A program made the translations under genes and the position numbers. A stretch of 22,505 bases of DNA. Source: a virus. This document shows positions 3,976 to 22,090 of the stretch, piece by piece. Each line of letters starts with the position of its first letter. The stretch's first letter is position 1. The notes below the pieces were generated by a model that saw nothing but the letters and a program-made list of their open reading frames with translations, did no database searches and had not been told where the DNA came from. The stretch covers positions 1-22,505 of IMG/VR virus record IMGVR_UViG_3300045988_042664, one strand, 5' to 3'.

Positions 3976-5169
3976 ATGAAAACTAAAGAAGAATTATTAG
4001 AAACATTAAAACAAGCTATCGATGACAAAAGCTCAGATGGTTTGTTTGAAGCATTAAGCAATTTAATTGAAAATCAAACAGATTCAAAAGCAGAACAGAT
4101 TTTGCAGGAAGCATTACGAGTTGATGATTCAAATATTTTAAAAGCACGTGGTGCTCGTCAGTTAACTTCTGCAGAAAAAGCTTTCTACAACAAAATTATT
4201 GATGCAATGCGTTCTGACAATTTCCGTCAAACAATCGACAACATCAACACAGTATTACCTGAAACAGTTATCGAGGATATTTTCTCAGAAATCGAAAACG
4301 AACATCCTTTATTGTCTAAATTAGACATCCAGGTAGCATCTGCAAAAGTTAAATTATTGTTCGGCGTAGCAGGTGATAACAAAGCGACATGGGGTAAATT
4401 GACTGATAAGATCGTTACTGAAATTTCAGGATCATTCGAAGAAATGGATATTTACCAATTAAAGGTAAGTGCTTATGTTCCAATTCCGGAATCAATGCTT
4501 GATTTAGGTCCAGTGTATTTAGACCGATTTGTTCGTACGTTGTTATATGATGCATTATCAAACGGTATCGAAGATGCAGCATTGAACAACTTGGCATCTG
4601 ATAAAGGTCCTATCGGTATGATGGCAGATTTATCTAAAGGAACAACAAACAGTGGTAAAACCACTTACACTGCTAAGACTGCTAAAAAAGTAGTTAATTG
4701 GACACCAAAAGGCTTGGCAGATGTAATCAAAGCCATGGCAAAAGGTCGTAATGGCAAAGCTCGTAAGGTTACTGGCTTATTCATGGTAGTAAGTCCTGAT
4801 GACTACTATGGATTAGTTAAACCTGCAATTTGCATCCAAACTCCTGCAGGTGACTGGGTAGAGAAATCACCATATCCTATCGACATCATCCAATCAGTAT
4901 ATTGTCCAACTGGTAAAGCTATCATGGGTATTGATAAGAAATATATGATGGGTATTGGTACTGCTCAAGCAGGTAAACTAGAAACATCTGATGAGTTTGC
5001 ATTCTTGGATGATAATCGTACTTATAAAATCAAATTGTATGGTAATGGTCAACCAAAAGATAACAACGCATTCCAGGTATTAGATATTACTGGATTGAAA
5101 GAGTTAGCTTTCAAAGTTGATTCAACTACTACAGTAGAAGGTCAAGTAAATACAAAAGCAGCTGCTTAA
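3976..5169 (+). CDS. major capsid protein (HK97 fold family)
   Basis: 397 aa with a strong SD (TAGGAGGA). It sits directly after the prohead protease. The N-terminal ~100 aa are helical and charged, like a delta/scaffold domain. Confidence 0.85.
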   Translation: MKTKEELLETLKQAIDDKSSDGLFEALSNLIENQTDSKAEQILQEALRVDDSNILKARGARQLTSAEKAFYNKIIDAMRSDNFRQTIDNINTVLPETVIEDIFSEIENEHPLLSKLDIQVASAKVKLLFGVAGDNKATWGKLTDKIVTEISGSFEEMDIYQLKVSAYVPIPESMLDLGPVYLDRFVRTLLYDALSNGIEDAALNNLASDKGPIGMMADLSKGTTNSGKTTYTAKTAKKVVNWTPKGLADVIKAMAKGRNGKARKVTGLFMVVSPDDYYGLVKPAICIQTPAGDWVEKSPYPIDIIQSVYCPTGKAIMGIDKKYMMGIGTAQAGKLETSDEFAFLDDNRTYKIKLYGNGQPKDNNAFQVLDITGLKELAFKVDSTTTVEGQVNTKAAA

Positions 5170-5194
5170 TCCATAAAAGAAAGGTGGCATCTAA

Positions 5195-5473
5195 ATGGAT
5201 GAATATTTATTAGGCTTAATCAAGACTGATTTAGGCTACAAGTGGTGTGACGATGCCACAAACGAAAAACTAAAACATTTAATCGCAGAGGGATTAGCTT
5301 ATCTGAAGAAGTATAGTCCTTCTGCAGATTTTCAAAGTGATGAATTTTCTAGAAGTTTATTAAAGAATTACGTGCTATACGCTTTATCAAATGCAACTGA
5401 TGATTTTAAAGTTAATTACAAAGATGAGATTCTTCTCTTTAGTGATTTAGGAAGGGCAAGCGATGTTAGTTAA
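5195..5473 (+). CDS. head-tail connector protein (gp6-like)
   Basis: 92 aa with SD AAAGGTGG. It is the first small gene after the capsid gene. The call rests on position and size. Confidence 0.55.
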   Translation: MDEYLLGLIKTDLGYKWCDDATNEKLKHLIAEGLAYLKKYSPSADFQSDEFSRSLLKNYVLYALSNATDDFKVNYKDEILLFSDLGRASDVS

Positions 5474-7179: not shown

Positions 7180-7584
7180 ATGAATATGCAATTAGAAATT
7201 AACAGAACAACATATGAATTTAGATTTGGCATTGGGTTCATGAAAGAGATTCAATCTCGATATAAAGAGATGGCTTCAATTTCAGTAGCAATTCCAAACG
7301 GATTCAAATACGTGGTAGCTAGTATGCTAGACGGTCATATCGAAGATTTGTTTGATATTCTATACACTGCTAACAAAACAGAAAAGCCACGTATCACAGA
7401 AAAAGCTTTAATGGAATATTTAGAAGATGAATCAACTGATATTGAATCGTTAATTAAAGAAGTAAAAGCTTTTTTATTAAAAGCCAATGCATCGAAGAGC
7501 TTGATGAATCAGATTATGGAAGCATTGGCAGAGGAAGCGGGAGCGGAAACGACAACAACAAAAACAAAGACGAAAAAGAAATAG
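7180..7584 (+). CDS. tail assembly chaperone (gpG-like)
   Basis: 134 aa with SD AAAGGAGA, immediately upstream of the tape measure module. The -1 frame is open across its last ~125 nt. Confidence 0.65.
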   Translation: MNMQLEINRTTYEFRFGIGFMKEIQSRYKEMASISVAIPNGFKYVVASMLDGHIEDLFDILYTANKTEKPRITEKALMEYLEDESTDIESLIKEVKAFLLKANASKSLMNQIMEALAEEAGAETTTTKTKTKKK

Positions 7585-7623
7585 ACTACATCACAGAGAT
7601 TTATGATGATGTAGCTTTTTTTT
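7573..7623 (+). promoter_or_regulatory. candidate -1 frameshift signal (AAAAAG slippery run plus downstream hairpin)
   Basis: AAA AAG lies in the zero frame at 7573-7578. After a 7-nt spacer there is an 8-bp hairpin, CTACATCA (7586-7593) pairing with TGATGTAG (7607-7614), then a T8 run (7616-7623). Confidence 0.4.
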
Positions 7624-7634
7624 GCTTTAAAAAT

Positions 7635-7958
7635 TTGAAGTTTACATCGTTTGAGCAAGTTGATCGTGTGACTTTGGCCGAATATAAATTGATGCTTAAA
7701 ACTAATTTAAGCAGAGAAGAAGAAAAAGAGTACGACCGTCATTGGAGGGCCTTTTTACAAATGGCAGTGCAATCGACAGTCGGAAAAGGAAAATCACAAC
7801 GAATGCGTTATTCAAAATTTGAAAAGTTCTATAACAGAAAAAAAGCAAAAAAAGAATTGGATAAGATATTAAATCCAAAAAGCGAAAGCAAAACAGAAGA
7901 AGAGTCTCGTATTAAAAGATTAATTGAATTTAAGAAAAGAAAGCGAGGCGATGAATAA
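7635..7958 (+). CDS. gpT-like frameshift extension of the tail assembly chaperone
   Basis: The track ORF opens only at a TTG with no SD. Its frame is open from 7458 and is -1 relative to 7180-7584. Its stop overlaps the tape measure start (TAATG). This matches the conserved G/GT arrangement. Confidence 0.55.
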   Translation: MKFTSFEQVDRVTLAEYKLMLKTNLSREEEKEYDRHWRAFLQMAVQSTVGKGKSQRMRYSKFEKFYNRKKAKKELDKILNPKSESKTEEESRIKRLIEFKKRKRGDE

Positions 7959-10903: not shown

Positions 10904-12436
10904 ATGCTATATGGATTTAGAGATACGACAGACACAAGTGGCGCACTAGGTAGTAATTTACCTAGTGAAGCCATGAATTTTAATGGAAAGTTTTTAGAAA
11001 ATGAAATACCAGGATATAGAACATTGACTGTAAGTGGTAGAGAATTGATTGGCTCTGAATTTAAAGTTAAGGACATTGAAGGGCTTGATGGTACGATTTG
11101 GAAAGAAAAATACTTGAAGCCACGCACGATCACAGTGAAATATCAGATAAATGCATCTAGCAATAAAGAATTTAGAGACGCGTATAACAAGATGAATTTA
11201 TTGCTAAGTGGTGAACAAGTTAAGATTTATTTTAATGATGAAACTGATAAATATTTCATTGGCACTAAAACTTCAAATGATGAAGTGGATGGTGGCACAA
11301 ATTATGTAATTGGTGAAATCGAAATCTATTGCTCAGACCCACGCAAGTATTCGACAACAGAAAAAGAATTTACTGCTACTGATGGAGTTTTGAACATTGT
11401 AAATGAAGGTACAGTGCCTGTAAGCATCGATTATGAAATTCAAGCAACATCTGAAACTGGATATATTGGTATCGTATCAACTGAAGGAGTAATGCAATAT
11501 GGCAAAATTGAAGAATTAGATTCTGAATCATATCAACAGAGTGAACATTTAGTTAGCATCAACAACTTTTACAATTGTGCAGATGACATTGGTGGAACGG
11601 ATGTAATGCATCCTCAGTACGGTTCGAACGGTACATTAGCCGAACACACTTGGTTTAATCAAAAGTTTATTGGATTTGGCACTGTTGGAGCAAAAAAAGG
11701 GTCTGCGAGTGGTGGATTAAGAACCTTGGTAATACCTGCAGATTCAAATGGAGATACAAGTGGTGCTCAGAACTTCTATTGTTATTTTCATTTGTTGTTT
11801 TATGCAGGACTTATGGGTCAGACTGGTGAAATGTGCATCAACTTCTTGACTGCAGATAACAAATTGATTTGTGGATGTAACTTTTATAAAACAGATACAG
11901 TCGGAAATACAGGACATTATGAGTTTTGGGCAAACGGCAAAATGCTTAGAAATTTCTCATATACAACTTCACATTTACACACACAAAATCCTTGGTATTG
12001 GAATTGGGGACATTGCGATGTTTTAAAAGAAGGTGGAAACATTAGGTTCTTCTATTGGGATGGATATTACAACTATTATATTCCGGAAATTGCAAACATG
12101 AAGTGTGCTAAAATTCAAATTGCGTTTAAACAATGGGGGGATAGAAGTGGTAATCAATTCATGTCTATGATGGGATTTGATGTTATCAACTTCACAAAGA
12201 ACAATGTTTCGAAATGGAGAGATATACCAAACAGATATCCAAGTGGTACAAAGATTACAATTGATGGTGAATCATCTCATGTTTATGTGAATGGTATGAG
12301 TAGACCTCAAGATGAGGTGCTAGGAACTAAGTATTTTAAAGCACCAGTAGGAACTACAGAGATAAAGACTACTTGCTCAAGTTGGTCAAAATCAAAGCCA
12401 ACAGTGAAAGCTAGGATTAGGGAGGCATGGTTATAA
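10904..12436 (+). CDS. distal tail protein (Dit), extended form
   Basis: 510 aa, directly after the tape measure. The N-terminal ~150 aa look like the siphovirus tail-component family. The protein is about twice the length of classical Dits. Confidence 0.65.
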   Translation: MLYGFRDTTDTSGALGSNLPSEAMNFNGKFLENEIPGYRTLTVSGRELIGSEFKVKDIEGLDGTIWKEKYLKPRTITVKYQINASSNKEFRDAYNKMNLLLSGEQVKIYFNDETDKYFIGTKTSNDEVDGGTNYVIGEIEIYCSDPRKYSTTEKEFTATDGVLNIVNEGTVPVSIDYEIQATSETGYIGIVSTEGVMQYGKIEELDSESYQQSEHLVSINNFYNCADDIGGTDVMHPQYGSNGTLAEHTWFNQKFIGFGTVGAKKGSASGGLRTLVIPADSNGDTSGAQNFYCYFHLLFYAGLMGQTGEMCINFLTADNKLICGCNFYKTDTVGNTGHYEFWANGKMLRNFSYTTSHLHTQNPWYWNWGHCDVLKEGGNIRFFYWDGYYNYYIPEIANMKCAKIQIAFKQWGDRSGNQFMSMMGFDVINFTKNNVSKWRDIPNRYPSGTKITIDGESSHVYVNGMSRPQDEVLGTKYFKAPVGTTEIKTTCSSWSKSKPTVKARIREAWL

Positions 12437-16255: not shown

Positions 16256-18133
16256 ATGGCAGAATTTAGTGGTGGAATACAAATTGGTAGTGGTCAGTGG
16301 GATAAATACTCGTTAATATTACGAATCAATGAAATATCTTATTCTGTTGAAAACAACACATCATATGTAGAGTGGTGGGTTGGTATTCGATCTAATACGC
16401 AGTACCATACACACAATGGAATTCCAGAAACATTTAAAGTATCCGTGAATGGTACTCAAGTGTTAGATCAAAGCTTTACACCTAATGTTCCAGCTGGAAC
16501 TCTTGTCGCTGTAAAAAATGGAACTGTAACTATTTCGCATGATGCAGATGGTTCAAAAACAATTTCGGCAAGTGCATCTTTCAGTGGAAGTAACCCTGGA
16601 TATTATGCACCTATTACTGGTTCTTGCAGTGGTACAGTTAAATTGACAACTATTCCAAGAGCATCAAGCATATCTATTGATAGCCCTAGTATTGAATGTG
16701 GTAACACTATTAATATTAACGGTTCGAGTGCTTCAAAGAACTTTACGCATAAAATCTATGCAACATGGAATGGTAAAACAAGTGAATTAACAACGATAAG
16801 TGGGACATTAACACCCACTTTTTCTTATACGATTCCTACCGCATGGGAAAAGGATTTGCCTAACTCGACAAGTGGTATCGCAACATTTACCTTAGAAACA
16901 TTCAGTGGTTCAACGTCAGTTGGCTCTAAATCGGTAAATGCAACTATCAAAGTCAGAAGCGGTGTAGTTCCTTCGATTGATAGCATCAAAATAGCAGATG
17001 CAAATTCTGTATGTGCAGGAATTGGGCAGATAGTTCAGTCGCAATCTAGGTTGAATTTTACAATTACATATAGTGGTGCACAAGGCTCAACTGTTACATC
17101 TGTATCAACCGAATTTGAGGGGCAAACGTATAACAATAGCTCATTTACTACTGGTACTGTACAAGGTAGTGGTAGCATTACCTATACAACAACGATCTAT
17201 GATTCACGTGGTAGAAGTTCACAAATTAGTGGCAAAGTAACTGTATCTGCATATAGTTCACCTAGCTTAACGAATGTGACTGCAAGACGTGCTAACTCAA
17301 GTTATACAGTTGATGAAGCAAGTGGAACGTATGCGTTATTGCACTTCAAAGTAGGATTTACTAGTTTAACTGGTAAGAATGTGACGTCATTCTATATCCA
17401 ATATCGAGCTAGTGGAGCTAGTTCATGGACGAAAATAAATTCATGGGATAACAACTATACTCTTGAGCAAGACTACAAAGCAGGTAATTTATTTACATCC
17501 GCAACAAATTCTTATGAAGTGGCATTCGGTGTTAAGGATAAGTTCATGAATGACTACTCATGGCAAATCTTTACTGTAACACCTACTTACTCGTTAATTA
17601 ACTTTGGTAAAGATGGAAGATCATTAACGTTCTTCGGTCAAGACGGAAACCAAAAAGATACACTAACCGTATTAGGCGATATTGTAGCTCCAATGTTTTT
17701 AAATAAAATATTCCCAGTTGGCGCAGTCTATATCACATACGACAAAAAGAACCCAGGAACATTCTTGGGTGGAACTTGGGAACAGTTCGGTCAAGGTCGT
17801 ACACTAGTCGGAGAAGGTACTGGAAACGATGGTAGTACAAGTATGTCATTTACTGCCAATCAAGTGGGTAGCGAATATAAGCATTTACTATCTTTGAATG
17901 AAATGCCGTCACACGCTCATAAACCACATGAATGGGATATCATCACTGCTCAAGGCGGTAATACTGGTTTATATAATATGACTTATTTAGGTGATAACAA
18001 TCGAACAGGAGTATTTAATCCTTTTATTCAAGATTATGATAAGAATCGATATGGATCATACGTTGGTAATGACATTCCACACAATAATATCCAACCATAT
18101 TTAGTTGTTTTCTTTTGGCGAAGGGTAAAATAG
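16256..18133 (+). CDS. distal tail fibre / receptor-binding protein with tail-collar-like C-terminal domain (active orientation)
   Basis: 625 aa. The N-terminus resembles the siphovirus DUF859 family (MAEFSGG...VEWWVGIRS...TVTISHDADGSKTI). The C-terminus carries collar/MdpB-like motifs: FPVGAVYI...GGTWEQ, EMPSHAH and PHNNIQPY. Confidence 0.75.
   Translation: MAEFSGGIQIGSGQWDKYSLILRINEISYSVENNTSYVEWWVGIRSNTQYHTHNGIPETFKVSVNGTQVLDQSFTPNVPAGTLVAVKNGTVTISHDADGSKTISASASFSGSNPGYYAPITGSCSGTVKLTTIPRASSISIDSPSIECGNTININGSSASKNFTHKIYATWNGKTSELTTISGTLTPTFSYTIPTAWEKDLPNSTSGIATFTLETFSGSTSVGSKSVNATIKVRSGVVPSIDSIKIADANSVCAGIGQIVQSQSRLNFTITYSGAQGSTVTSVSTEFEGQTYNNSSFTTGTVQGSGSITYTTTIYDSRGRSSQISGKVTVSAYSSPSLTNVTARRANSSYTVDEASGTYALLHFKVGFTSLTGKNVTSFYIQYRASGASSWTKINSWDNNYTLEQDYKAGNLFTSATNSYEVAFGVKDKFMNDYSWQIFTVTPTYSLINFGKDGRSLTFFGQDGNQKDTLTVLGDIVAPMFLNKIFPVGAVYITYDKKNPGTFLGGTWEQFGQGRTLVGEGTGNDGSTSMSFTANQVGSEYKHLLSLNEMPSHAHKPHEWDIITAQGGNTGLYNMTYLGDNNRTGVFNPFIQDYDKNRYGSYVGNDIPHNNIQPYLVVFFWRRVK
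17834..17854. repeat. left recombination core site (inside the fibre gene)
   Basis: AGTACAA-GTATGTC-ATTTACT. The spacer and inner arm are identical to the right site, and the outer arm matches 5 of 7. It lies within the 16-bp perfect inverted repeat at 17841-17856. Confidence 0.65.
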
Positions 18134-18414
18134 CTACTTGATACGTCTCCAAAAGTAAGTTACCACGTAAGGTTGTACATTATCGTGAGGTTTGTTTCCG
18201 CCTGTTGGATATGTTTGACCGTACCAATAATAATTAGTTCTCTGAGCACGTTCAGTGGCTCTCGTAAAAGGAACATCACTATATGGATTACCATATAATG
18301 CAGTGGTTACATCGGTTTGTTGGTCTAAGATCCAATGCGTATGGCTCGGTAGCTCTTCACGTGTAAGTTTATGATAGTAGTCACCGCCAATCCATCCAGC
18401 AGTAAATGACATAC
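17841..18414. mobile_element. predicted invertible segment carrying two convergent fibre-tip cassettes
   Basis: It is bounded by GTATGTCATTTACTGC (17841-17856) and its exact reverse complement (18399-18414). It contains the active tip (to 18133) and the silent tip (from 18134), with their stop codons abutting as TAGCTA. Confidence 0.6.
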
Positions 18415-18433
18415 ATTTACTTGTAGTAATCAC
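18134..18433 (-). CDS. silent alternative C-terminal cassette of the tail fibre (no ATG start or SD of its own)
   Basis: It is paralogous to fibre residues ~529-625: MSFTA, E(M/L)PSH(A/T)H and PH(N/D)N(I/V)QPY..V..FWRR(V/I)K. The ORF opens at a GTG inside the recombinase 3' end, and no SD precedes that GTG or the internal ATG at 18412. Confidence 0.7.
   Translation of the reverse strand: MITTSKCMSFTAGWIGGDYYHKLTREELPSHTHWILDQQTDVTTALYGNPYSDVPFTRATERAQRTNYYWYGQTYPTGGNKPHDNVQPYVVTYFWRRIK
18401..18421. repeat. right recombination core site (perfect 7-7-7 dyad)
   Basis: AGTAAAT-GACATAC-ATTTACT has 7-bp perfect inverted arms around an asymmetric 7-bp spacer. The recombinase stop codon (minus-strand TAA, 18417-18419) lies in the outer arm. 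Confidence 0.65.
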
Positions 18434-19310
18434 AAAGTAGCTCTACACATTTACGCTTTAATTCCATTTGAGGATGTACGTAGATGTTCATTGTGATTGA
18501 TACGTTGGAGTGTCCTAACAATTCGCTCAGTGATTTATAATCACAACCACATTCAATACATCTTGTAGCGAATGTATGTCTGAGCGCATGGAATTTGAGA
18601 TGTGGTAGGTCAAGTTCTTTTAAAACTCTATTGTAGTAAAGCCTATATTTATTAGGTTCTATCGGTTTATCTCGATTCGTTAATACATAGTTATCTGCAT
18701 CGCCTTGAAGCAGTATTGCGTAATGCATTATCCAAGTGTTCAACGGAATCATACGAGTGCTAGAACGTGATTTAGGCGGTGTTATTGAAAGATGACTACC
18801 GTCTTCTTTTGTGTATGTTCGTATCATGGTTTTGTCGATTTTTAAAAGTTTGGTCTGTACATTTATATCAGACCATTTCAAAGCGCATAGTTCACCTATG
18901 CGTATTCCGGTGTGGATGCATAAAAGTATTCCAAAGTTTTTACAGTTGATCTCAGATTGGAGATGATTAATCAATGAAATTTGATGTTCTTTTTCAAAAA
19001 TCTCAACCGCCTTAGGAGGATGGTAAGGTAACTGAACATCGACTTTGAATGGAAGCGTAAATTTAAGAATTTGAATAATGTCTTTGGCATATTTGAATGA
19101 TATGCCACCTTTTCCATCTTTACGACCATTTTCAAGTTTTTGAAGAATAAACTCCTGCGGAATATCGTTGTTCAAATCTTCAATCTGATAATTGCCTAGT
19201 TTTGGCATGATGTGATTGTGGATCACATTACAATAATTTGTGTAAGTGCTGTATTTTAGATAGATTTTCTTTTCTTTTAACCAAGATGTTAATTTTTCTG
19301 AATATAGCAT
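18417..19310 (-). CDS. tyrosine site-specific recombinase (phage integrase family), predicted fibre invertase
   Basis: 297 aa with the full catalytic set: R137 (TGIRIGE), K180, H241-x-x-R244 (HALRHTFAT), H267 (LGHSN) and Y277 (NIYVH). It has a SAM-like N-terminal core-binding domain and no long arm-binding domain. The family call is secure; the invertase role is inferred from context. Confidence 0.85.
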   Translation of the reverse strand: MLYSEKLTSWLKEKKIYLKYSTYTNYCNVIHNHIMPKLGNYQIEDLNNDIPQEFILQKLENGRKDGKGGISFKYAKDIIQILKFTLPFKVDVQLPYHPPKAVEIFEKEHQISLINHLQSEINCKNFGILLCIHTGIRIGELCALKWSDINVQTKLLKIDKTMIRTYTKEDGSHLSITPPKSRSSTRMIPLNTWIMHYAILLQGDADNYVLTNRDKPIEPNKYRLYYNRVLKELDLPHLKFHALRHTFATRCIECGCDYKSLSELLGHSNVSITMNIYVHPQMELKRKCVELLCDYYK

Positions 19311-19603: not shown

Positions 19604-19611
19604 ATATTGCG

Positions 19612-19636
19612 GAGTCTAGAAATAGGCTCTTTTTTT
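19612..19636 (+). terminator. candidate rho-independent terminator
   Basis: GAGTCTA (19612-19618), a GAAA loop and TAGGCTC (19623-19629) form a 7-bp stem with one G-U pair, followed by T7. Confidence 0.45.
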
Positions 19637-19662
19637 ACAAAATTTAAAAGGAGGAATTGTAT

Positions 19663-19887
19663 ATGAATTTTGCATCTGCATTTATTTCGATGACTCGTGG
19701 CCACAAGGTTGCTCGTAGTCACTGGAGTGGATATTGGCATATCGTCGATGGAATCATCATGATGCATACGAAAGATGGTATTGATTTAAAATTAACGGAT
19801 TCAGACGATATTGTATATACAATCAGCAATTGTGCATGTGATGACTGGAACATTGTTGATAACTATGGAGTTAGCAAGGAGAGATAG
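19663..19887 (+). CDS. DUF2829 family protein (Tad2-like candidate anti-Thoeris sponge)
   Basis: I prefer the ATG at 19663 (AAAGGAGG at 19647-19654). It is 74 aa. The N-terminus MNFASAFISMTRGHKVARSHWSG matches the recalled DUF2829 signature (M.F..A...l..G.kv.R..W.g), and the C-terminus has the typical DDW.IV ending. Confidence 0.55.
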   Translation: MNFASAFISMTRGHKVARSHWSGYWHIVDGIIMMHTKDGIDLKLTDSDDIVYTISNCACDDWNIVDNYGVSKER

Positions 19888-19890
19888 AAT

Positions 19891-20130
19891 ATGGAACAAT
19901 TGAAAAATGCTAAATGGTGGAGTGCAGCATGCACACGCTGCTTAAAAACAATGTGTCAGACTGCAATCGCAATGATTGGAACGTCACAAATGATGGAACA
20001 AGTGGATCTTAAAGTTGTAGTATCAAGCACTGCTTTGGCTGGAATTTTGTCATTATTGACATCCTTAGCCGGATTACCAGAAGTAGAGACACCCTATACT
20101 GAAGATGAAGAAGCGAAAGAAAATCAGTGA
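19891..20130 (+). CDS. holin
   Basis: 79 aa with SD AAGGAGAG. It has two hydrophobic segments (CQTAIAMIGTS and VVVSSTALAGILSLLTSLAGL) and an acidic C-terminal tail. It lies two genes upstream of the endolysin. Confidence 0.6.
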   Translation: MEQLKNAKWWSAACTRCLKTMCQTAIAMIGTSQMMEQVDLKVVVSSTALAGILSLLTSLAGLPEVETPYTEDEEAKENQ

Positions 20131-20141
20131 GGGCGCTGGTA

Positions 20142-20537
20142 ATGAACTTTGTGATTACTAGTGAACAGATTGTCTGGTGTATGACTTTTATTGGTCTTGT
20201 CTGGGCCACTGTTAAGATTATCAAGGAGCTAAAAAAGCCGAGTGATGATCTTAAAGAAACGGTGAAGAGACATACAGAATTATTGCATCGAGATAACGAA
20301 CGATTGAATTCGCTTGAAAAGATAACCTTGAATCAGGAAGGTATCAATCGCAAATTAGAAGAACATACTCGCATCCTATCAGATCATGATGATCGGTTGG
20401 AAGAGGACAAGAAGCGAGGCGATCTGATGTTAAAGGCGAACATGGCCATCCTCGATGGAATGTTATCGGAAGATGATAAAGAAAGCCTAAAGGCTACACG
20501 AAAGGAAATCCAGGACTTTTTAGTCGAGAAGAATTAG
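20142..20537 (+). CDS. membrane-anchored coiled-coil protein of the lysis cassette
   Basis: 131 aa from the ATG at 20142 (GAGGG at 20129-20133). The track's GTG at 20127 is possible through a GTGA overlap with the holin stop. It has one N-terminal TM helix (IVWCMTFIGLVWATVKII) followed by a charged helical region. Confidence 0.5.
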   Translation: MNFVITSEQIVWCMTFIGLVWATVKIIKELKKPSDDLKETVKRHTELLHRDNERLNSLEKITLNQEGINRKLEEHTRILSDHDDRLEEDKKRGDLMLKANMAILDGMLSEDDKESLKATRKEIQDFLVEKN

Positions 20538-21857: not shown

Positions 21858-21889
21858 AGCCTATGATTAAGTTCATAGGCTCTTTTTTT
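21858..21889 (+). terminator. rho-independent terminator downstream of the lysis cassette
   Basis: AGCCTATGA (21858-21866), a 6-nt loop and TCATAGGCT (21873-21881), then C and T7. Confidence 0.7.
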
Positions 21890-22090
21890 ATGCTATTATT
21901 TTTTGTGAGCACCCATCTGACAACCCCAAGGCATTTTCCTACTGCCTAGCTATAGCATATTTACCTGATTTACTAACTGTTTATTAACGTTCTTAATGCT
22001 AATTTATTGAATGGGGACGTCATGAGGGTACTCACATTATTTTTATAGCTCGTGTACTAGCGTATAAGGACTTTCTTGGGTCGTATGAAT

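Follow-up and report, generated by a model that had tools for sequence, protein, structure and literature searches.

Judged by architecture, the closest described counterpart of the locus reported here is the Rin shufflon, which belongs to prophages of Bifidobacterium and Eggerthella and has been reported as the first tyrosine invertase encoded by a phage (Mavrich et al. 2018, PMC6109161; PMC8778435). In Rin, the Rv cassettes are each headed by an 11-bp repeat, rix, with the sequence TTCCCTAACCC (PMC6109161). In the R64/IncI shufflon, the sfx site of the recombinase Rci has a core of 7 bp between two arms of 12 bp, the left one variable and the right one conserved, and the extra C-terminal domain of Rci is thought to enforce inversion only (PMC11852207). 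Tail-fibre genes are frequent targets of programmed inversions in systematic surveys (PMC9881135). In the Gin (Mu), Cin (P1) and Min (p15B) systems, as at the present locus, inversion is associated with the swapping of the C-terminal part of a tail fibre, and in these systems it alters the host range. Among them, Gin and Cin are two-state switches and Min is a multi-segment system. They differ from the locus described below in that a serine recombinase, a 2-bp crossover, and Fis with an enhancer are used; no serine recombinase was found among the ORFs and Pfam matches of the region, and its recombinase is of the tyrosine type, not a serine invertase of the Gin/Cin/Min/Hin kind.

The window, that is, the whole stretch of 22,505 nt that was analysed (IMG/VR virus record IMGVR_UViG_3300045988_042664), carries a pair of short inverted repeats beside a gene for a tyrosine recombinase of 297 aa. 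These repeats are best explained, with a probability of about 0.85, as the sites at which a site-specific inversion switch recombines, with the adjacent recombinase as its enzyme. In a comparison by architecture, all the features of Rin are found in the family to which the window belongs: a phage-encoded armless tyrosine recombinase lies beside a receptor-binding or tail gene and is accompanied by a separate integrase; a constant N-terminal part is combined with C-terminal cassettes of ~90-100 aa; the cassettes are preceded by a short asymmetric repeat in either orientation; and the inversion variants (here five isomer pairs) break at the repeats. The differences lie in the hosts, which are Bacillota (Erysipelotrichaceae) here and Actinobacteria in Rin; in the site, which is GTATGTCnTTTAC instead of rix TTCCCTAACCC; and in the tip, which is similar to the C-terminal part of T4 gp10, whereas that of Rin is similar to the TP901-1 RBP. 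Moreover, the crossover is placed inside a domain at a conserved motif, and the window has two sites.

Fibre gene, sites and recombinase of the window

The tail-fibre or receptor-binding gene (16256-18133, plus strand, 625 aa) was assigned from its ORF and from Pfam, PHROG and PDB matches, namely DUF859 (E=2e-44) and Gp10_C (E=7e-21) in Pfam, tail proteins in PHROG, and the solved C-terminal domain of T4 gp10 (2fkk). It is preceded by the tape-measure gene, the Dit gene and a 1274-aa gene of the tail-fibre/host-specificity type (PHROG), and because of this position downstream of them its product is regarded as a distal tail or receptor-binding protein. The gene consists of a constant part (16256-17840) and the variable tip now expressed (17841-18133). 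Tail to tail with this tip lies a silent alternative tip cassette (18134-18414, minus strand), recognised by Pfam Gp10_C and by in-silico inversion, which encodes 93 aa including the shared SMSFT (SMSFTAGWIGG...FWRRIK). The silent cassette is identical to the expressed tip at 37 of 97 residues, and it matches only positions 55-139 of the Gp10_C profile, i.e., the C-terminal two thirds. The stop codons of the two cassettes abut without any intergenic base (TAG followed directly by CTA, 18131-18136); no terminator was found at this junction to separate the fibre gene from the recombinase gene, which is antisense to it, and the promoter scan gave no match above shuffle expectation.

The first-pass annotation had described a right site with two 7-bp inverted arms around a 7-bp spacer, and a left site that shares the spacer and the inner arm and matches in only 5 of 7 positions of the outer arm. 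Both were recovered from the sequence: the right site, AGTAAATGACATACATTTACT (AGTAAAT-GACATAC-ATTTACT), at 18401-18421, and the left site, AGTACAAGTATGTCATTTACT (AGTACAA-GTATGTC-ATTTACT), inverted relative to it, at 17834-17854. The repeat itself is slightly longer than had been noted. The repeat finder, which places no other pair of the 3′ third of the window above this one, gives an inverted repeat of 23 nt (17834-17856 against 18399-18421) with 21 of 23 positions matching (91% complementary), and within it a block of 16 bp, GTATGTCATTTACTGC, is perfect (17841-17856 on the plus strand, 18399-18414 on the minus strand). The left recombination site (17834-17856, plus strand; sequence, repeat finder, copy scan and family logo) lies inside the fibre ORF and consists of the outer arm AGTACAA (17834-17840), the core GTATGTC (17841-17847) and the inner arm ATTTACTGC (17848-17856). 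It encodes the fibre residues S-T-S-M-S-F-T-A, and the repeat encodes S-M-S-F-T-A in frame in both cassettes. The right recombination site (18399-18421, minus strand; sequence, repeat finder, copy scan and family alignment) has, read on the minus strand, the outer arm AGTAAAT (18415-18421), the core GTATGTC (18408-18414) and the inner arm ATTTACTGC (18399-18407), and the stop codon of the recombinase sits within its outer arm. The 7/7 symmetry of the right site is partly incidental, since positions -1 and +7 vary freely among the family sites: it belongs to the AAGTAAAT class of recombinase-adjacent arms, its seventh pair (-1/+7) is unconserved in the family, and the symmetry that recurs across the family sites is GTAAA/TTTAC.

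The 14-mer GTATGTCATTTACT has two copies and no more in the 22.5-kb window, in agreement with the earlier remark that a third copy could not be seen. Over the whole window, one further match with at most two mismatches is located at 10996, with its core mismatched. For matches within 2 mismatches, 0.40 are expected by chance, and three were reached in 0 of 100 shuffles; of 200 random sequences matched in first-order composition, one contained a perfect 16-mer inverted repeat within 1 kb. Two other repeats were observed in the region. A perfect 15-nt inverted repeat, TAGTAATCACAAAGT / ACTTTGTGATTACTA at 18424-18438 and 20146-20160, begins 3 nt past the right site and connects the 3′ end of the recombinase gene with the ORF 20127-20537; both copies are found only in the closest relatives (L001, L074), so that it is probably a coding coincidence, and it was rejected as a part of the system. 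A direct repeat of 16 nt, ATAGGCTCTTTTTTTA, is identical at 19622-19637 and 21875-21890, the first copy forming the 3′ half and T-tail of a terminator-like hairpin (19611-19630) and the second lying after the lysin gene.

The recombinase (18417-19310, minus strand, 297 aa) is an armless tyrosine recombinase and a presumed invertase, convergent with the fibre gene and identified by Pfam and by alignment to Tn1549 Int (6emy). It matches Phage_integrase (PF00589, E=1.4e-28) together with Phage_int_SAM_3, and it has the R-K-H-R-H/W-Y catalytic domain of the tyrosine recombinase superfamily, with all six catalytic residues present in the motifs and in the 6emy alignment (R137, K180, H241, R244, H267 and Y277). 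Since the protein matches Pfam Phage_integrase and PHROG integrase families, it might be taken for the integrase of the phage, with the repeat as part of attP or as an unrelated site. This is scarcely credible, because the arm-binding N-terminal domain of a phage integrase acting on attP is absent, no NCBIfam equivalog cut-off is reached, the gene is located between the fibre and lysis genes, and the sites sit within the fibre coding sequence; in addition, the relatives encode a separate integrase of 359-374 aa after the lysin gene, one of them with an Arm-DNA-bind_4 domain. A megablast of the region against GenBank phages gave no match. The ORF 19657-19887 (plus strand), downstream of the recombinase, has a sub-threshold Pfam match to a Tad2-like Thoeris anti-defence domain (E=3e-4, 21.6 bits against a cut-off of 25).

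Related loci and their inversion states

In the viral contig scan, relatives of the recombinase were found in 52 viral loci at 65-98% amino-acid identity, and with the metagenome, Logan and genome sequences included the family comprises more than 55 loci, with recombinases 61-98% identical. The genome scan places the family in Erysipelotrichaceae, with a Holdemanella MAG at 94%, Floccifex at 74%, Erysipelotrichaceae bacterium at 64-68% and Firmicutes bacterium M10-2 at 61%. The carriers are siphophages of gut Erysipelotrichaceae (Holdemanella, Floccifex and relatives), and the window phage is a gut phage whose host is probably Holdemanella. In each locus, the motif GTATG[T/A]C-n-TTTAC is located between the constant part of the fibre and the stop codon of the recombinase. 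The computational scan for more copies that had been proposed finds two in the window and 2-8 in each related locus, in both orientations and many of them direct. At every site the inner arm points, in frame, to a tip cassette, and the outermost site is always adjoined by the conserved recombinase, whose stop codon lies within the site. Altogether 169 cassettes form 86 clusters at 85% identity; 164 of them read to a stop codon within the contig, and all but one of these 164 are full-length (67-107 aa). Such intactness of the silent cassettes implies that they are periodically expressed.

Two-site loci account for 8 of the ~43 complete loci, and the window is likewise of this type. Up to five sites of the same orientation (direct) are found in L075, successive sites being a few hundred bp apart, and direct repeats at such distances are kept in many diverged loci. 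The first-pass annotation had preferred a two-state switch to a shufflon: this holds for the window with its two sites, but not for the family, which is multi-cassette with up to 8 sites, many of them direct, and the window is a minimal two-site member of this multi-cassette shufflon family. Back-to-back site pairs were also observed, with 10 bp between the cores in L065 (36/47) and L066 (807/818), so that their two outer arms must overlap, and with 17-18 bp in other pairs.

Distant recombinase homologues (31-40% identity; Bacteroidales MAGs, Bacteroides/Phocaeicola, Vescimonas) have no adjacent tail-fibre cassettes and were not counted. In two human-faecal phage scaffolds with homologues 36-40% identical, the recombinase gene is bracketed by inverted repeats, which are perfect and 24 nt long in L072 (MT837341, 1063-1086/2479-2502) and near-perfect (97%) and 29 nt long in L073 (MT835594, 1576-1604/2968-2996); this self-inverting architecture is unlike a tail-fibre shufflon, and both were rejected as family members. 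In L060 (Bacteroidales RUG720, rumen), long imperfect inverted repeats (5169-5440 against 7413-7684) flank a homologue of 37% identity, which may represent another invertible locus of a different type.

Among the relatives, five pairs are colinear but for a segment that is inverted, exactly from one site to another: L004/L015 (586 bp, two-site loci in opposite states), L019/L031 (726 bp), L005/L016 (533 bp, 98.5% identical), L012/L049 (807 bp) and L036/L046. Closer to the window, L075 matches it at 98.9% identity from the last part of the tail gene that precedes the fibre gene as far as the site; past the site, L075 runs into the silent cassette of the window, inverted, 96.8% identical and fused at the site. 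The encoded protein, P0017 (621 aa), equals the predicted flipped product of the window save for a few substitutions, and the silent tip of the window is thus expressed there as a fibre tip. The expectation that inverted sites of this kind give inversion is in this way supported twice, by the five isomer pairs that break at the sites and by a 99%-identical relative in which the silent tip is expressed. In the protein cluster at 90% identity that contains the fibre of the window, the members are 611-637 aa long and share one N-terminus with at least 8 tips. The tip type now expressed in the window is silent in L026 and L065-L067, and the silent tip is also silent in L001, L023, L024, L026 and L068. 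A search by cluster representatives returned short silent forms only, and the flipped fusion was found through the cluster members only, since the single representative of a 90% cluster masks the variation in tips.

Samples with this phage include ERZ1308115, SRR30134513 and the IMG 3300045988 set. The exact recombinase sequence occurs in five assemblies, all five in the orientation of the window and none flipped, and the flipped junction of the window (fibre arm, core and silent tip) is absent from the viral and metagenome contigs by exact pattern and by wobble-degenerate pattern too. The shared orientation and the missing exact junction would also fit a fossil switch, i.e., inherited sites and cassettes in a two-site remnant that no longer inverts at a meaningful rate, the activity having perhaps been lost after deletions removed the other cassettes; two sites are indeed the end state expected from deletions between direct repeats. 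Such a remnant is nevertheless unlikely. The recombinase ORF is intact with its six catalytic residues, core and inner arm are perfect at both sites, the ORF of the silent cassette is unbroken and 96.8% identical to the copy expressed in a sister phage, other two-site loci occur in both states (L004/L015), and assemblies show only the majority orientation. The preferred reading remains an inversion switch; flipping in the exact window strain is presumed from its close relatives and may be rare.

If both orientations coexist in a sample, contigs that end in the shufflon, as well as the copy in L009 described below, are to be expected as symptoms of assembly. Contigs ending inside the shufflon make up 10 of 52 among the viral contigs and 4 of 5 among the Erysipelotrichaceae genome contigs; ends within the shufflon were seen in L008, L014, L018, L030, L035, L038, L042, L043, L045 and L053-L056. 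The start of L009 (1-96) repeats the recombinase 3′ end perfectly and in inverted orientation over 96 nt (against 808-903, the window-oriented copy), and this is probably an assembler artefact, with both orientations in the sample.

Core and arms of the site across the family

The family logo, built from 156 distinct sites, reads AGTAnAn, GTATG(T/A)C and nTTTACnnC for the outer arm, core and inner arm, respectively. The 7-bp spacer had been proposed as the overlap region, and the family behaves in the way that this requires: the core is uniform within the locus in 49 of 49 multi-site loci (141 sites with GTATGTC and 20 with GTATGAC), although this uniformity is not fully independent evidence, since the sites within a locus share ancestry, and where it changes to GTATGAC it does so in all sites together. 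The GTATGAC loci are L022, L028 and L039, whose recombinase is ~95% identical to that of the window, and L040-L044 and L057, a clade at 61-66%; cassette cluster C0 is joined to either core, depending on the locus. As far as can be read from the sequences, this concerted change amounts to a natural version of the proposed mutation of the spacer in all sites alike, with function apparently kept. Among the sites of one locus, GTATGTC is the sole invariant block of at least 6 bp, and positions -1 and +7 vary within loci, so that the stretch which has to be identical is limited to 7 bp. The position of cleavage is bounded here through one assumption, namely that the overlap is identical between partner sites; what the sequence presents is a core site with inverted arms around an asymmetric, identical overlap in the range of 6-8 bp.

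Position 7, next to the core, was tried as a crossover marker and is uninformative: it moves with the cassette in L005/L016, whereas in L019/L031 and L004/L015 it does not. The C3 cassette, for example, has C at this position in L019 and A in L031, and the position could lie inside the heteroduplex, which would suit a different arrangement, in which GTATGTC is part of a binding arm and strands are exchanged in the adjacent TTTAC or across position 7. This arrangement is improbable. TTTAC offers only five invariant bases between the variable positions 7 and 13, which is too short, the known overlaps of tyrosine recombinases being 6-8 bp. GTATGTC, for its part, is flanked by mirrored arms and shows the concerted, locus-wide change expected of an overlap region, and in L005/L016 position 7 does move with the cassette.

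Since the inner arm and the core are also coding, part of their conservation reflects the protein. Comparison of the codons indicates, however, that the inner arm nTTTAC is conserved beyond the requirement of the protein sequence: the Phe codon in the site is nearly always TTT and never TTC, with a handful of TAT or TTG, while TTT:TTC in the fibre gene is 18:12, and the first Ser codon in the site is always AGT. The outer arms of the silent sites are never part of the fibre, being cassette ends, stop codons or the recombinase 3′ end. In 55 distinct non-coding internal outer arms, A is found at -2 in 100%, a pyrimidine at -5 in 100% and G at -6 in 62%; on this pattern, the outer arm is a degenerate mirror of TTTAC. 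The division into a conserved inner arm and a variable outer arm, as first described for the window, is therefore a property of the family sites as well, with the addition that the outer arm mirrors the inner one.

These observations also bear on the view that the repeat is no more than the SMSFT protein motif of two paralogous tip fragments, exchanged by homologous recombination or horizontally. In both cassettes the repeat is read in frame as S-M-S-F-T-A, and the variable positions 7 and 13 are third positions of codons, which speaks for that view. Even so, it is very improbable. It leaves unexplained the fixed synonymous choices (Phe never TTC, the first Ser always AGT), the mirrored signal in non-coding outer arms, and the change of the core in concert per locus while the same cassette types are joined to either core. 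Moreover, five independent inversions break in a block of ~20 bp, though the cassettes share other conserved motifs, and the outermost site is in every case directly adjoined by the conserved recombinase, whose stop codon falls within it.

Mechanism, directionality and meaning for the phage family

In the inversion switch preferred here, the recombinase would bind the conserved arm specifically and the degenerate arm weakly, pair the two inverted sites, and exchange strands at the edges of GTATGTC. This exchange would flip the invertible segment of 560 bp between the cores (17848-18407, without a strand of its own), which is defined by in-silico inversion and by the homologous segments inverted among the relatives. 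Inverting 17848-18407 in silico gives an intact fibre of 621 aa with a tip of 93 aa and leaves the recombinase unaltered; the recombinase gene is untouched by the flip because its stop codon is in the outer arm, outside the crossover. The 528 constant residues of the fibre would thus continue in frame into the other tip, the joint being the S-M-S-F-T codons that both tips share, inside the gp10-like C-terminal domain, and the product would be a 621-aa fibre whose receptor-binding tip is ~38% identical to the present one. The junction sequences that are together diagnostic for switching, when both are read in one sample, are ...GGTAGTACAA-GTATGTC-nTTTACTGCTGGATGG and ...TACAAGTAAAT-GTATGTC-nTTTACTGCCAATCAAG. 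The tips would be expected to differ in receptor specificity, and swapping them would likely change the receptor or the host strain that is recognised.

The resemblance to the sfx sites of Rci, which had also been pointed out, stands for the layout of the site and does not extend to the enzyme. Compared with R64 (NC_005014), the family has in common a 7-bp core flanked by a conserved arm towards the cassette and a variable arm on the far side; several sites that point either way, some of them paired back to back; the swapping of a C-terminal tip of an adhesin; and a recombinase at one end of the array. The enzymes, in contrast, have an identity of only 24% along 151 aa of their catalytic domains, and Rci has 384 aa with an extra C-terminal domain, more than 100 residues following the catalytic Tyr, against 297 aa and 20 residues in the recombinase of the window; the latter is not an Rci orthologue, although its sites have the sfx-type layout. 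The sequence of sfx, GTGCCAATCCGGT, is unrelated to GTATGTCnTTTAC, the target in R64 is the PilV pilus adhesin and not a phage fibre, and the recombinase here is convergent with the target gene, with its stop codon within the site. No Escherichia or Salmonella plasmid is among the organisms listed for the tblastn matches.

A Cre-like, non-directional enzyme should collapse arrays with direct sites. Arrays with up to five direct sites persist in the family; from the persistence of direct repeats in many diverged loci, a bias towards inversion can be argued, and the asymmetry of the site would be what disfavours deletion between direct sites. If deletion did occur occasionally, the end state would be the two outermost sites, which are always inverted, and this is the state of the window. 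As a tentative extension, it is possible that the recombinase is an independently evolved, minimal shufflon invertase, in which inversion is favoured over deletion through site asymmetry alone; the pairing of a strong inner arm with a weak outer arm that mirrors it may then suffice without the C-terminal domain of Rci.

The kind of system is already known, while the family of Rin-like tyrosine-recombinase tail-fibre shufflons in Erysipelotrichaceae phages is, as far as the searched literature shows, previously undescribed. In that literature, RBP shufflons of phages with a tyrosine recombinase are confined to actinobacterial prophages, to which a large family of human-gut Erysipelotrichaceae (Holdemanella-type) phages is now added. 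The family also provides a natural mutagenesis series of the site, with a concerted change of the core, a tolerated degenerate outer arm and fixed synonymous positions. Such loci break short-read assemblies, and a single assembled orientation under-reports the host-range potential of the phage. A small invertase with a site of ~21 bp could be of interest to engineers of DNA shuffling if it is inversion-only, and the minimal invertase, if it proves true, would be a compact new tool and a second, simpler answer to the directionality problem of Rin and Rci. For the phages themselves, at least 86 types of tip cassette (85% identity) are carried on one conserved fibre scaffold, which offers a ready catalogue of receptor-binding tips that can be exchanged at a defined point of fusion.
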